Of a DNA stretch of 8,636 bases, positions 1 through 8,636 are shown piece by piece; within the stretch, counting starts at the first letter, position 1, and every line of letters begins with the position of its first letter. Under the pieces are notes generated by a model. It was not told the origin of the DNA, did not search any database, and was given only the letters and a program-made list of their open reading frames with translations. The translations under genes and the position numbers were made by a program. The DNA is from a virus (taxonomy: Monodnaviria > Loebvirae > Hofneiviricota > Faserviricetes > Tubulavirales > Inoviridae), in the IMG/VR virus record IMGVR_UViG_2563366882_000001, one strand, 5' to 3'.

Positions 1-15
1 TACATTATGCGCACC
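1..15 (-). other. dif: Partial dif-like XerCD recombination site (candidate attL), cut by the window edge
   Basis: Seen: reverse complement of 1-15 is GGTGCGCATAATGTA, identical to the first 15 nt of the 28-bp E. coli dif (XerC arm GGTGCGCATAA plus 4 nt of central region, recalled from memory). The XerD arm would lie left of the window. Confidence 0.6.
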
Positions 16-2442: not shown

Positions 2443-3162
2443 ATAATAATTAAACCCTTTGTTAACGGAAAACTGACCATGTGTAATAAATGGCGGCAAA
2501 AGCGAATAAGCACCATGCGGATAATTATCAGTAAAAGCCTGTTTTGTATTGTAGGCGGAATATAATGACTTTCCGGTATATATCCATTTATCAACAGTTA
2601 TTGAATTAACGTTGTCACCATATTTAACAATACCAAAGTGAACCTTTGGTAAAGAAAAACGAGCACCTGAAATTATATTCATGAAAGAACCAATAAATGG
2701 GATGTTTAACTTATCTGAACGACGACAATAAACAACATGCTCTGCAAGCGCCAGCCGTGCTTGCTTGTCCATAATCGAAATATCCTGAATCAGAAAAATA
2801 ATATCCCAGCCTAATTTACGGGCATGCAAAAACCAGTCAATAACTGGCTGTCTGTCTTTATCCCCCCACGAACGGGAATTAAACCAAGTCCCACATTCAT
2901 CAAGAACCAGTAGACCATTACGTGATTCATCATAGGAAGTATTGCCTACACCAATAGCCAGCAGATCATTTAATGAAGGTTTGTCAGGTACACGAATCAC
3001 GCGTGTTTTTTTCGCATAACGACCAACCATGGGCATATTATGTAGTTTAATATCTAGATTAGTGGCTACAGGACAGCCTTTAGCTAGTCTTTCCTGTATT
3101 CTGGCAACACTAACCAGTGTCTTACCTGAACCTAATTTCCCTGTTACGACATAAACCGTCAT
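2068..3162 (-). CDS. gI: Phage assembly ATPase pI (Zot-like), Walker A GKLGSGKT
   Basis: N-terminus MTVYVVTGKLGSGKTLVSV... and blocks GLLVLDECGTWFNSRSW, QPVIDWFLHARKLGWDIIFL, ALAEHVVYCRR closely match M13 pI as recalled. Start ATG at 3162 immediately follows the gVI stop. Confidence 0.9.
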   Translation of the reverse strand: MTVYVVTGKLGSGKTLVSVARIQERLAKGCPVATNLDIKLHNMPMVGRYAKKTRVIRVPDKPSLNDLLAIGVGNTSYDESRNGLLVLDECGTWFNSRSWGDKDRQPVIDWFLHARKLGWDIIFLIQDISIMDKQARLALAEHVVYCRRSDKLNIPFIGSFMNIISGARFSLPKVHFGIVKYGDNVNSITVDKWIYTGKSLYSAYNTKQAFTDNYPHGAYSLLPPFITHGQFSVNKGFNYYMRLTKIYFRKSNRLILMLSFLALGLGLGFWLQSGKNADEISAIKSAHAEQVRAVTPDSTSDLPRLSINSFSQLGFDVSVTFVDAKGMKYQYFDLIKDGYSVDIKDACRIVIRKGRYLQNITCQE

Positions 3163-5579: not shown

Positions 5580-5894
5580 TTAATGCCAGTTACTGGCATG
5601 TGAAATACGGTTGTAATCAAAAATAAAACCTTTCTCATAAACCCATGTAGGGATTTGGGCTGGTTTAGCTTCAAGTGTTCTTACTAATGGAACAACATTA
5701 TTTGAATCAGGGGATTCACAATAAAAATTAATATCTATCCCGAAAGACAATAATTCTTTTCGGTGCCTGTAAAATGTTGGCTTTGGAAGCATTTCTTTCA
5801 TGTTTGCGCCCTGCTTCCACAGTAAATATGTTGATTGTATTTTTCTCGGCAGTTTAACTATTTTTTCATCGGTCAAAATGGCATTTTGATTCAT
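5580..5894 (-). CDS. gX: Candidate pX: in-frame internal start within gII (104 aa)
   Basis: Inference by analogy with Ff pX: internal ATG at 5894-5892 gives MNQNAILTDE... (M13 pX begins MNIYDD), with GGGAG about 9 nt upstream. Confidence 0.35.
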   Translation of the reverse strand: MNQNAILTDEKIVKLPRKIQSTYLLWKQGANMKEMLPKPTFYRHRKELLSFGIDINFYCESPDSNNVVPLVRTLEAKPAQIPTWVYEKGFIFDYNRISHASNWH

Positions 5895-6632
5895 TTCTAT
5901 TCTCCCTACATATTCAGAGAATAATTTGTTTGGAGTATCGATATTCCAGTTACTGCCAAGCGTAAGGTTTAAGTCAATTAATTCTGTTGTTCTTAGCGTC
6001 AATTCAATTCGTAATTTATCTTTAGACCAGTCAAGTAAGCCAGCTTTAACAAACTCTTCTGCTATCTGGTGTCCTTTTTTACCAGAAATATGCTCATCAT
6101 ATTTTGAATAAAATTTCAGGCTCCACCGCCGGGAGTTTTTCCCTAAGTAAACAGTTCCACCTTTACCACAGGCGCGACCATGGCGAGTTTTAGCCTTGAA
6201 TTCTGCGGCATATAGCCATGCGCGGACATTTTCCAGCGTTGATAATGAATACATGTAGTTAATATCAATGCGTGAGATCTTAAATTGCCCTGCCATTACC
6301 TGACGATAGGATGGTAGATCATGAGGAATATGAAGTAATGCCAATATTCTTGCGTAAGCGGTTAATACCAGCCCCTGCAAATCATCGGAGCCAATAACAG
6401 AATGCCCCTGAAGAAATTTTGACGGATTTCCGTCAATATAAAGATGAGTTGCCCGGCCTTCCCCGTCTGATCCAACAGATCGTACTTTCATTGTGGATTC
6501 GTATGAACCGCGAACGGTCAACCGCTTTACTGTTTCCCACTCCACTGCACCGTCAGCATCAACGCTGACGACACTACCGGCCGGTAACGGTCGGTGTGTG
6601 CAAGGAAGAATTCCGGTAAACCAGTCGATCAT
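5580..6632 (-). CDS. gII: Rolling-circle replication initiation protein pII (350 aa)
   Basis: N-terminus MIDWF... and the motifs NPSKFLQGHSVIGSDDL and C-terminal NNVVPLVR match M13 pII (MIDMLVL..., KASPAKVLQGHNVFGTTDL, CNNVVPLVR) as recalled. First gene of the minus-strand operon, divergent from the repressor-like gene. Confidence 0.85.
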   Translation of the reverse strand: MIDWFTGILPCTHRPLPAGSVVSVDADGAVEWETVKRLTVRGSYESTMKVRSVGSDGEGRATHLYIDGNPSKFLQGHSVIGSDDLQGLVLTAYARILALLHIPHDLPSYRQVMAGQFKISRIDINYMYSLSTLENVRAWLYAAEFKAKTRHGRACGKGGTVYLGKNSRRWSLKFYSKYDEHISGKKGHQIAEEFVKAGLLDWSKDKLRIELTLRTTELIDLNLTLGSNWNIDTPNKLFSEYVGRIEMNQNAILTDEKIVKLPRKIQSTYLLWKQGANMKEMLPKPTFYRHRKELLSFGIDINFYCESPDSNNVVPLVRTLEAKPAQIPTWVYEKGFIFDYNRISHASNWH

Positions 6633-6803
6633 AAGTAGTCACACCCATCAAAATATGTGTCAATAGTCATTTGTGAGCAGATTGAATGGTCACAATTTAA
6701 TATGCTCAGATCTGACAGTCAATACATTTGCAATGTTTAAATTGTCAGAACTGAGCATGTGATCAGACTATTGAAAAACCACTGTTAAGATGGAGCCAAG
6801 TAG
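6633..6803. promoter_or_regulatory. Divergent intergenic control region between gII and the repressor-like gene; candidate operators and promoters
   Basis: Seen: AT-rich 171-bp gap between divergent start codons with recurring TGTCA/TGACA motifs and inverted repeats. I could not place a convincing -35/-10 pair by eye. Confidence 0.5.
6702..6758. repeat. 16-bp inverted repeat (15/16) separated by 25 bp; candidate repressor operator pair
   Basis: Seen: ATGCTCAGATCTGACA (6702-6717) and TGTCAGAACTGAGCAT (6743-6758) are reverse complements with one mismatch. The left arm contains the perfect palindrome TCAGATCTGA (6706-6715). Confidence 0.6.
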
Positions 6804-7250
6804 ATGGGCAACAATGAGCATGAAGTTATGGCGGACAAACAGAGAGCAGAACGTATAAAAAAGGCAATTCTGGAACACTCGACTTATGAAGAACTGGCCG
6901 AGAAGACTGGCATTAGCGTAAGTACGCTGGTCAGGATAGCGTCCGGCAAAACTGAACCTAAATTCAGCGATATAATTCAGATAGCTAAAATTACTGGCGC
7001 AGATTTGAACACCTTAGCTTATGGCTATGCTCTTGATGTTAAAGAAGAAGCTACTGAGCGAAAGCTGATAACTTCTGCGGACGGATATACTGATGAAGAA
7101 ACCACGAACGCGCATAATTTCATCGTGTGGAACATCAGAACATTGGAGAAGCAAGATATTCTGGCACTTGCAAGGCAAGTTTCTGCATTAAGTTCATATA
7201 CTTACAGTACAAAAATGTTTATGAAAAAAGCATTGTCAGGCGAAGAGTAA
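6804..7250 (+). CDS. XRE-type helix-turn-helix DNA-binding protein; probable phage repressor (148 aa)
   Basis: Residues about 26-48 (STYEELAEKTGISVSTLVRIASG) have the typical XRE/Cro-cI HTH pattern. GGAG SD upstream. Divergent from the replication gene, as rstR is from rstA in CTXphi. Confidence 0.65.
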   Translation: MGNNEHEVMADKQRAERIKKAILEHSTYEELAEKTGISVSTLVRIASGKTEPKFSDIIQIAKITGADLNTLAYGYALDVKEEATERKLITSADGYTDEETTNAHNFIVWNIRTLEKQDILALARQVSALSSYTYSTKMFMKKALSGEE

Positions 7251-7260
7251 AAAGCTAGCG

Positions 7261-7313
7261 GTCTCAGGAATGAGACTAACGTGCAGTATTACCAACACTG
7301 CACGTTCTTTATT
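7261..7313 (+). terminator. Two adjacent hairpins after the repressor-like gene; the second is a candidate intrinsic terminator
   Basis: Seen: GTCTCA-ggaa-TGAGAC (7261-7276); then a 10-bp perfect stem AACGTGCAGT (7278-7287) / ACTGCACGTT (7297-7306) with a 9-nt loop, followed by CTTTATT. Confidence 0.55.
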
Positions 7314-7799: not shown

Positions 7800-8075
7800 A
7801 TGAAACTGAATCCTGAGAAATACAATAGAAACATTACCCTGCTATGTCCTGTGTGCGGAAATACAGAGATGGAACACGAGGAAGAGTCTGAAGTCGTCAG
7901 ATGTGTAGGCTGCGGGAAAGAATTTACTAATGATGAGTTAATCCAAGAAAACGGGGTGAGTATTGACGCTCATGTAGATGAAATAAAAGAAGAGTTAACA
8001 AAAGACATTCAAAAACAGTTTAACGACATGCTCAAAAAGGCATTTAAGGGAAGTAAGAATATAAGGATCAAATAA
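7800..8075 (+). CDS. Hypothetical small zinc-ribbon protein (91 aa), C16-x2-C19 ... C35-x2-C38, acidic and Lys-rich
   Basis: ORF with AGGAAA SD upstream; two CxxC pairs spaced 15 residues apart. Its stop overlaps the next start (TAATG at 8073-8077). Confidence 0.6.
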   Translation: MKLNPEKYNRNITLLCPVCGNTEMEHEEESEVVRCVGCGKEFTNDELIQENGVSIDAHVDEIKEELTKDIQKQFNDMLKKAFKGSKNIRIK

Positions 8076-8554
8076 TGACAACAAGTGATGCCATCGCTTT
8101 AGCTGCGCTTGTAGTATCGATTTACACTATCATATCGTCAGAAATGAAATCGAGAAAAAGCGATAGAGAACAAAAGGTTATAAAGGATGAGCAAGACAGG
8201 TTACGTAAGTTGCTTCTGGAAAAAGAAACAAAGTCAGCAATTAATGAGATGAAAGCTGAGCTTGGTGCTCGCCTCGTAAAAATAGCCAAAAACAACTATA
8301 GGCTCAAGATATTTAATAGAGGGAGGGTTGAGGCTAAAAATATAGAGATTCATTTCCCTGATAACGATGGAAATGAATATCTTTCAATGCATGATGTAGA
8401 AGATAAATTTCCATATGAGGTATTACACCCGCAACATGGGATTGAAATTTTAGCGGGAATAAGCTTTGGAAGTAAAACTAAATACCGAATAAAACTCATA
8501 TGGGATGACAATTATAAAAGAAGAAATGAAGAGGATTTTTTCATTTCTATATAA
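8075..8554 (+). CDS. Hypothetical protein (159 aa): N-terminal hydrophobic helix, charged coiled-coil-like segment, C-terminal domain
   Basis: ORF translationally coupled to the upstream gene. Residues about 6-22 are hydrophobic (AIALAALVVSIYTIISS), followed by a K/E/R-rich region. Visibly AT-rich, unlike the structural module. Confidence 0.6.
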   Translation: MTTSDAIALAALVVSIYTIISSEMKSRKSDREQKVIKDEQDRLRKLLLEKETKSAINEMKAELGARLVKIAKNNYRLKIFNRGRVEAKNIEIHFPDNDGNEYLSMHDVEDKFPYEVLHPQHGIEILAGISFGSKTKYRIKLIWDDNYKRRNEEDFFISI

Positions 8555-8584: not shown

Positions 8585-8622
8585 AGGCCGCTGCGGGATT
8601 CGATTTTCGCAGCGGCCTTTTC
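8581..8622 (+). terminator. Strong rho-independent terminator closing the plus-strand cassette
   Basis: Seen: GC-rich 11-bp perfect stem AGGCCGCTGCG (8585-8595) / CGCAGCGGCCT (8608-8618) with a 12-nt loop, then TTTTC; an A-tract precedes it. Confidence 0.65.
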
Positions 8623-8636
8623 AACATAACGAGTCG
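8619..8636 (-). other. dif-like XerD-arm (reverse orientation) at the right edge, truncated by the window; candidate attR
   Basis: Seen: 8619-8629 TTTCAACATAA versus reverse complement of the dif XerD arm ATTTAACATAA (9/11, core AACATAA exact). Same orientation as the dif fragment at 1-15. Confidence 0.35.

Follow-up and report, generated by a model that had tools for sequence, protein, structure and literature searches.

The filamentous phages YpfΦ of Yersinia pestis and CUS-1 of E. coli K1 carry, in their YPO2273–YPO2274 region, essentially the same element as the one considered here, a 171-bp control region (positions 6633–6803) that separates the divergent start codons of the replication gene gII and of a gene for a 148-aa helix-turn-helix (HTH) protein. 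It lies in an 8636-bp stretch of DNA (IMG/VR record IMGVR_UViG_2563366882_000001; hereafter the window) that comprises a single, whole unit of a filamentous (inovirus) prophage. YpfΦ, CUS-1 and the window agree in gene order, dif integration and tandem arrays, and the relatives differ in the cargo genes of the attL-side segment (PMC4266046). YPO2273 occupies the rstR position of CTXφ and its part in regulation is still to be shown by experiment, the intergenic region of YpfΦ is presumed to take part in transcription initiation, and a resident YpfΦ gives partial protection against superinfection (PMC4266046). The same review also reports that in Y. pestis RovA binds the putative promoter region of YPO2274 (gII). 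No operators are described in the literature examined that mentions YPO2273. Our comparison indicates that the 171-bp region is probably the immunity and control region of the phage, with three dyad operators for its own repressor arranged around the gII promoter.

Several better-studied switches bear on this reading. In CTXφ of Vibrio cholerae (rstR–ig-2–rstA), as in the window, the repressor gene is divergent from the replication gene across a short intergenic region, and multiple operators lie over the replication-gene promoter in a module that is swapped between heteroimmune phages, an arrangement to which we liken the operators predicted here. The protein family of the window in fact occupies the RstR position of Aeromonas phage L016. 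RstR binds as a dimer of dimers, according to the passage of PMC8402870 that cites Kimsey & Waldor 2004. CTXφ is co-repressed by LexA (PMC3323433), whereas the control region of the window is without a LexA box, CTGT-N8-ACAG with at most one mismatch having zero matches in 6633–6803. In Pseudomonas, repressor C of Pf4 (Pf4r) is a filamentous-phage repressor governing superinfection immunity (PMC8402870), and this protein is unrelated to that of the window. The XRE/Cro-cI DNA-binding domain of the window protein is also found in P22 c2 and in 434 repressor and Cro, although the sequences are unrelated beyond the fold. As in the window dyads, P22 c2 and 434 operators combine conserved outer half-sites with a sequence-tolerant central 4 bp, and the P22 operators are 18 bp long in a 7-4-7 layout, equal to the dyads described below. 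The likeness has limits: the window dyads lie 39 bp apart whereas P22 c2 and 434 operators are adjacent, and the C-terminus of the window protein is predicted, in a low-confidence model, to be a long helix pair and not a LexA-like cleavable domain.

Anatomy of the gII control region

The gap between the gII start (6632, minus strand) and the HTH gene start (6804, plus strand) is 171 bp long, as initially annotated, and has a GC content of 36% against 41% for the window. The initial annotation had built its picture of this gap on a near-perfect 16-bp inverted repeat, on a perfect 10-bp palindrome and on reiterated GTCA and TGTCA motifs. The repeat is present, with 6702–6717 (ATGCTCAGATCTGACA) and 6743–6758 (TGTCAGAACTGAGCAT) complementary at 15/16 positions; at least 15/16 is reached in only 2 of 1000 dinucleotide-preserving shuffles of the 171 bp, and a repeat search lengthens the arms to 27 nt (81% complementary, 3-nt loop). 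The palindrome, TCAGATCTGA at 6706–6715, is likewise as described. The motif claim holds for GTCA/TGAC, which occurs 7 times against 2.7 expected (16/2000 shuffles reach 7), and does not hold for TGTCA/TGACA, whose 3 occurrences against 1.6 expected are not significant (386/2000). The most over-represented word, TGAGCA/TGCTCA (3 against 0.22 expected, 0/2000 shuffles), had gone unmentioned.

To see what is conserved, the control region was gathered from genomes of E. coli, contigs of IMG/VR, Y. pestis and a relative from a metagenome whose repressor is 86% identical (L009; L numbers denote the loci compared), which gave 9 distinct 171-bp variants free of indels. The conserved unit in this set is an 18-bp dyad consisting of a 7-nt half-site, a 4-nt spacer and a second 7-nt half-site, ATnGTCA-N4-TGAGCAT. 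It is present three times, 39 bp apart, with positions below given relative to the predicted gII transcription start and scores taken from a position weight matrix (PWM):

6663–6680, no strand: O3 candidate operator, ATAGTCA-tttg-TGAGCAG, at about +8 to +25; PWM score 17.0; matches STCANNNNTGAS
6702–6719, no strand: O_L (middle) candidate operator, ATGCTCA-gatc-TGACAGT, at about −15 to −32; PWM score 18.2–18.4
6741–6758, no strand: O_R candidate operator, ATTGTCA-gaac-TGAGCAT, at about −54 to −71; PWM score 20.5–21.0, the maximum in the window

This anatomy and its pattern of conservation are read directly from the variants. The O3 half-sites are near-invariant, with one change (TGAGCGG in L026) around a spacer that is tttg, cttc, ttta or cttt, and those of O_R are invariant save for the outermost base (CTTGTCA in L030) around gaac, gaaa, taaa or gaag. 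Altogether 5/42 half-site columns vary, compared with 6/12 spacer columns and 52/117 others (half-sites, Fisher p=8e-5 versus other columns and p=0.009 versus spacers). Most close variants are about 94–99% identical, so that conservation alone is weak evidence; the 86% relative L009 retains every dyad while its long-range complementarity falls to 11/16. In its O_L, a C to G and an A to C change fall at symmetry-related positions and turn 14 bp of the site into a perfect palindrome, GGTCAGATCTGACC. For the pattern STCANNNNTGAS the window has 4 occurrences where 0.39 are expected, three of them inside the 171 bp.

The dyads recast the features from which the region was first recognized. The left arm of the inverted repeat and the 10-bp palindrome are contained in O_L and the right arm in O_R, and the third dyad, at 6663–6680, had been overlooked. 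The 16-bp pair is thus not itself the unit; it is a by-product of two 18-bp dyads in mirror orientation, since the second and third dyads each join a TGAGCAT-type half to a TGACA-type half in mirror order. Nor is the palindrome a unit: it falls in the variable middle spacer, and because this spacer is GATC, GTTC or CTTC in relatives, neither the palindrome nor the Dam site within it is a selected feature. Dam regulation through the GATC of O_L was rejected on the same variation within the lineage.

Beyond the close relatives, an O3-equivalent dyad lies in the same place, directly after TGTCAAT, in L054, L056, L016, L006, L012 and L014, and O_R-equivalent dyads lie 68–81 bp from the O3 equivalent in L054, L056, L016, L010, L006, L012 and L014. 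O_L is confined to the YpfΦ/CUS-1 lineage, a lineage comparison made partly by eye.

The predicted gII promoter and a proposed repression switch

The position of the middle dyad gains meaning from the predicted promoter that it overlaps and from the gene that this promoter would serve:

6694–6722, minus strand: predicted sigma-70 promoter serving gII and the phage operon downstream; −35 TTGACT (6722–6717), 17-bp spacer, −10 TAAATT (6699–6694)
5580–6632, minus strand: gII replication initiator, first gene of the proposed repressed operon; Phage_CRI E=2e-72 and G2P_X_C E=7e-33, aligned from residue 1

O_L fills the 17-bp spacer of this promoter and overlaps the −35 element by 3 bp. A consensus scan finds it to be the sole promoter-like site in 6500–6950, and it scores 14.6 in a separate sigma-70 PWM scan. 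TTGACn-17-TAnnnT on the gII strand is the top match in 11/11 scanned lineages, with scores of 12.0–14.7. From these elements, gII transcription would start near 6687.

We infer binding, repression, cooperativity and any autoregulation from this layout, as follows. One strong leftward sigma-70 promoter would drive gII together with the downstream replication, assembly and secretion genes, and dimers of the neighbouring 148-aa HTH_3 protein would bind the three dyads at their 39-bp spacing, the recognition helix of each monomer (Ser38-Val-Ser40-Thr) reading one 7-nt half-site and the central 4 bp remaining unread, as in P22 c2 and 434 operators. A dimer seated on the middle operator, in the −35/−10 spacer, would exclude RNA polymerase, while the operators on either side, at roughly +16 and −62, would bracket the promoter; these flanking sites are what all relatives conserve of the design. 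Since operators and repressor gene travel together as a single module (see below), we propose that they define superinfection-immunity specificity.

For the transcription of the repressor gene itself, three rightward promoter candidates were considered and found unconvincing: TAATAT at 6698–6703, back-to-back with the gII −10; TTGTCA/GACTAT at 6742–6771, which is not conserved; and TGtTAAGAT at 6783–6791, which abuts the Shine-Dalgarno sequence. The last of these belongs to a composite element:

6783–6795, plus strand: TGtTAAGAT (extended −10-like) with GGAG directly behind it (Shine-Dalgarno, 8 nt ahead of the ATG); sequence motif

A TAnnnT hexamer abutting GGAG or GAGG, 10–14 nt ahead of the start codon, is found in every lineage (the window and 10 other loci), often preceded by TGn. 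It is possible that this −10-like hexamer is a near-leaderless repressor promoter, by likeness to lambda cI transcribed from P_RM, and it may equally be just the context of the ribosome-binding site.

Two further elements border the operators:

6658–6664, no strand: TGTCAAT element (TTGACA on the gII strand) abutting O3; beside the first dyad in nearly all lineages
6804–6821, no strand: possible fourth, weak site covering the start codon of the repressor gene, ATGGGCA-acaa-TGAGCAT; PWM score 16.9–17.7, the right half alone being good

The TGTCAAT element is present whatever the repressor specificity or Rep type, and a sigma-70 matrix scan finds no usable −10 after it on the gII strand. At the fourth site, TGAGCAT, TGAGCAC or a near variant recurs at the same offset from the ATG in the window, L002, L009, L030, L031, L055 and L054, and in weaker form in L056 and L010. 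We grade 6804–6821 as unproven as an operator because its left half lacks the TCA core that is common to 18/18 accepted half-sites (TGA- in outward orientation) and because it sits in coding sequence. A further dyad-like sequence, GTCTCAggaaTGAGAC at 7261–7276, was rejected as a fourth operator, as it is conserved across differing repressor specificities and is part of a putative origin discussed below.

The HTH_3 protein

6804–7250, plus strand: 148-aa HTH_3 (XRE/Cro-cI type) putative repressor, orthologue of YpfΦ YPO2273; Pfam HTH_3, PHROG 3557

The 148-aa protein scores 38.2 bits for HTH_3 (PF01381; cutoff 23) and 22.1 for Phage_CI_repr (cutoff 22), and it matches PHROG 3557, a transcriptional regulator, at E=7e-74. 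An AF2 model gives a helical N-terminal domain with a five-helix Cro/cI-like fold (residues 12–73 at pLDDT 87–94), in which the recognition helix spans approximately residues 38–46 (S-V-S-T-L-V-R-I-A), followed by two long C-terminal helices of low confidence that are plausibly an oligomerisation element. Foldseek relates this N-terminal part to 434 Cro (64 residues aligned at rmsd 1.7 and 33% identity), P22 c2, the N-terminal domain of lambda cI, SinR and controller proteins, with E-values that are weak (0.003–0.1) because only the domain aligns. A sequence search of solved structures returns just one marginal TrpR-like match.

The relationship to RstR is distant. BLASTP aligns the protein to El Tor RstR at 27% identity over 75 residues, in the HTH domain alone, hhalign gives a probability of 74%, and CTXφ records are absent from a tblastn search of the phage collection at E<=1e-3. 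By these comparisons the protein is a positional analogue and distant XRE-family relative of RstR, not a member of a narrow RstR family.

Module swapping and helix/half-site co-variation

The evidence that ties the dyads to the adjacent regulator comes from comparison of prophages in which the two change together. Among E. coli prophages whose backbones are about 85–90% identical (gII about 90%), there are three unrelated versions of the intergenic region plus regulator: the window type (A), a type with a 150-aa regulator and a type with a 60-aa ORF. Similarity ends precisely at the gII ATG and picks up again at a conserved hairpin immediately beyond the regulator gene. This exchange is observed directly, and homologues at 53–86% identity, divergent from a replication gene, extend the same context to Escherichia, Photobacterium, Aeromonas and Vibrio phages and to metagenomes; the Aeromonas homologue (L016) adjoins RstA/RstB-type genes.

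In the other E. coli types, the equivalent 170-bp gap also contains three repeats each (L004 1586–1709; L005 2617–2699), those of type B (APEC E19057-like) being a ACAATTTTGTGAC family and those of type C (UM146-like) being TGAGTTCA three times. A three-site layout thus seems general across the E. coli immunity types.

A half-site matrix built solely from the window and L009 sites was then run over the other loci with a score threshold of 14. It finds 2 matches in each of four other lineages with an I-S-x-S-T-L helix (L054 Photobacterium, L056, L016 Aeromonas and L010), all in the control region and 68–81 bp apart, although the repressors of the lineages that share this dyad motif are only 53–61% identical. 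The seven loci with other helices or regulators have no match at this threshold. Outside annotated intergenic regions (85 kb) there is 1 match, at L010 position 2357, and this is the partner site, 81 bp from its mate as in L016, lying a little way within a Rep start that is probably mis-called. Shuffled windows yield 0.1 matches per 8.6 kb.

The half-sites also differ where the helix differs. In lineages where Arg replaces Ser40, the dyads are AGACA-N4-TGTCT and GGACA-N4-TGTCC when the helix is INVRTL or IGTRTL, and GCCA-N4-TGGC when it is ISVRTL, with the same 7-4-7 geometry at the same two positions. Such co-variation of helix and half-site, itself a plain observation on these loci, is what is expected of a repressor-operator pair and not of a hairpin, an origin or a host-factor site. 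The dyads are tied to the neighbouring HTH gene by three kinds of evidence, namely module swapping, conserved divergent context and helix-matched half-sites. The proposal, already made in the initial annotation, that the HTH protein represses the gII operon draws support from the swapping and the co-variation together with the conserved gII promoter overlapped by a dyad. Its companion claim, that the operators set immunity specificity, is favoured on comparative grounds, as the intergenic region and regulator swap together and the half-sites co-vary with the helix. The autoregulation put forward alongside them is conjectural, as no conserved rightward sigma-70 promoter emerged from the scan.

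Alternative explanations

The inverted repeat could instead act as a structure, either a hairpin in single-stranded phage DNA or a cruciform, serving as a minus-strand origin, packaging signal or single-strand promoter. The viral strand of 6695–6765 does fold well, at −15.3 kcal/mol (z=−4.6, 0/200 shuffles as good), its arms extend to 27 nt, and in L030 the spacers are exact complements (CTTC/GAAG), which makes the repeat perfect at 16/16. In L009, however, the hairpin is gone despite three retained dyads (−7.2 kcal/mol, z=−1.2, 27/200 shuffles as good), and remoter lineages likewise retain dyads without a long inverted repeat. Of its 20 pairs, 11 are invariant, 1 has changed at both positions and the variation mostly disrupts pairing, the resulting covariation being matched by 64/500 shuffles; O3, moreover, has no hairpin partner. 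We consider a structural role for the repeat improbable. Slightly more improbable still is that the repeats are the plus-strand replication origin, with gpII binding and nicking sites upstream of gII. The Ff phages do have their origin in the intergenic region upstream of gII, and the region here is AT-rich and full of repeats, but gII proteins that are about 90% identical face wholly unrelated sequence in this region, an Ff-like nick motif was not found in the control region, and a far better candidate exists at 7261–7305, just 3′ of the HTH gene. There, a conserved double hairpin combines GTCTCA-ggaa-TGAGAC and ACGTGCAGT-attaccaac-ACTGCACGT, and on the viral (window minus) strand it reads ACGTGCAGT-GTTGGTAAT-ACTGCACGT followed by GTCTCA-TTCC-TGAGAC (−16 kcal/mol, z=−6.3). 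The layout is that of the M13 plus-strand origin, a nick hairpin with a GTT...TAAT loop and then a second palindrome, and its 23-nt core recurs unchanged in 27 loci that include every immunity type. This element probably serves gpII as nick site and origin, and probably also marks where the swappable module ends on the right.

A different reading leaves the dyads as protein-binding sites and assigns them mainly to a host regulator, RovA/SlyA or another global factor, in place of the phage HTH protein. It takes its force from RovA at the putative YPO2274 promoter region and from the de-repression of phage genes in a rovA mutant, both as reported in the review PMC4266046. The half-sites nevertheless follow the recognition helix of the phage protein through hosts from Escherichia to Photobacterium and Aeromonas, and the region swaps along with the regulator gene inside one host species. 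Because a host factor predicts neither the co-variation nor the joint swapping, we regard this reading as unlikely, though RovA/SlyA may additionally bind AT-rich parts of the region. Finally, the repeat might be a chance feature or a recent duplication-inversion devoid of function, for which the near-identity of the close variants leaves some room. Yet the 15/16 complementarity is rarely reached by shuffling, conservation selectively favours half-sites over spacers, and the motif recurs alongside repressors that are only 53–61% identical, which together make chance scarcely credible. Two other elements sought in the region or window were absent: there is no dif-like match inside the control region, and attP/dif was rejected there, the dif-derived sites being at the window ends; and no Rfam RNA families were found in the window.

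Repressor-specific operators therefore remain the preferred account, and several points weigh against it. The dyad model was defined after viewing two sequences, which renders the column-variation statistics partly post hoc and the matrix scan the cleaner test. The 39-bp spacing corresponds to 3.7 helical turns and is not helically phased, so that cooperative binding is not obviously favoured. A conserved rightward sigma-70 promoter for the repressor gene was not found in the 11 lineages scanned, and part of the region may serve host factors, given the reported binding of RovA. A further point is a 122-aa repressor homologue with an identical HTH segment, STYEELAEKTGISVSTLVRIASGKTEPKFSDII, encoded at 1903–2274 of a 41.4-kb IncP-like plasmid (L033, NZ_CP061111.1): the 41 kb of this plasmid contain no such dyad at any place, and a scan with spacers of 2 to 6 nt finds none in its intergenic DNA. 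One match with a 3-nt spacer (score 19.5) lies inside a coding gene and is compatible with chance, given five spacers and 41 kb. The link between motif and protein is accordingly unconfirmed in the plasmid context.

The prophage unit and its borders

The window belongs, by sequence comparison, to the YpfΦ/CUS-1 group of dif-integrating enterobacterial inoviruses, a placement that follows from its dif-site borders, from an HTH protein that matches the YpfΦ protein, present in Y. pestis NCTC5923 as two tandem copies, at 99% identity and from its near-identical control region, where a 231-bp stretch differs from YpfΦ at 9 positions (99% mean column identity). The minus strand encodes gII, gV, coat genes, gIII, gVI, gI/zot and the gIV secretin, and the plus strand encodes the 148-aa HTH_3 protein and then three small cargo ORFs. 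The order gII-gV-gVII-gVIII-gIII-gVI-gI-gIV thus runs in one direction with regulator and cargo opposite, as established from the ORF list, Pfam and the RefSeq annotation of a 99% identical relative.

Read as the reverse complement, the first 15 bases of the window give the XerC half of E. coli dif; its start is the reverse complement of GGTGCGCATAATGTA, its end is TTTCAACATAACGAGTCG, and the last bases bear a XerD-arm-like TTTCAACATAA. A 99% identical E. coli relative has the element in tandem, adjoining hipBA. The tandem junction reads GGTGCGCATAA-TGTACGACTCG-TTATGTTGAAA, an imperfect dif site (window 1–15 and 8617–8636), and in L001 this imperfect junction is found both between tandem copies and at the chromosome border by hipBA (2985–3015 and 12055–12095). 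The window is cut exactly at the imperfect dif and is therefore one full unit of a tandem, XerCD-integrated array next to hipBA.

Past a conserved 140-aa membrane ORF, the cargo differs among near-identical prophages (window 7800–8554 compared with L001 10879–11988). The window has a zinc-ribbon ORF and a 159-aa ORF where the 99% relative has a single 369-aa ORF, and this slot adjoining dif is a variable “moron” slot.

Implications for immunity in the YpfΦ/CUS-1 group

The 122-aa plasmid homologue lies directly after a resolvase gene on conjugative plasmids with trfA, korB and trb, which recur across hundreds of contigs. The homologue may act as an orphan repressor that gives immunity to YpfΦ-type phages. 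A broader reading joins this copy, as plasmid-borne immunity that silences incoming YpfΦ/CUS-type phages, to a “specificity code” at Ser/Arg40; we hold this combination to be doubtful. If the code were true, Ser/Arg40 would switch the half-site between TGAGCA and TGTC/TGGC with the 7-4-7 geometry fixed, and would yield heteroimmune filamentous phages across Enterobacterales, Vibrionales and Aeromonas.

Most likely, the arrangement is an ordinary, textbook temperate-phage immunity switch in an already known phage family, whose operators had previously been unmapped. The gain is at the level of annotation and introduces no new principle. The setting gives it some weight, as YpfΦ is associated with virulence in the plague bacillus and related phages occur commonly in extraintestinal pathogenic E. 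coli. The operator and promoter map offers directly testable targets in three dyads, a half-site consensus and the residues likely to read it, and would account for near-identical phage backbones falling into distinct immunity types.

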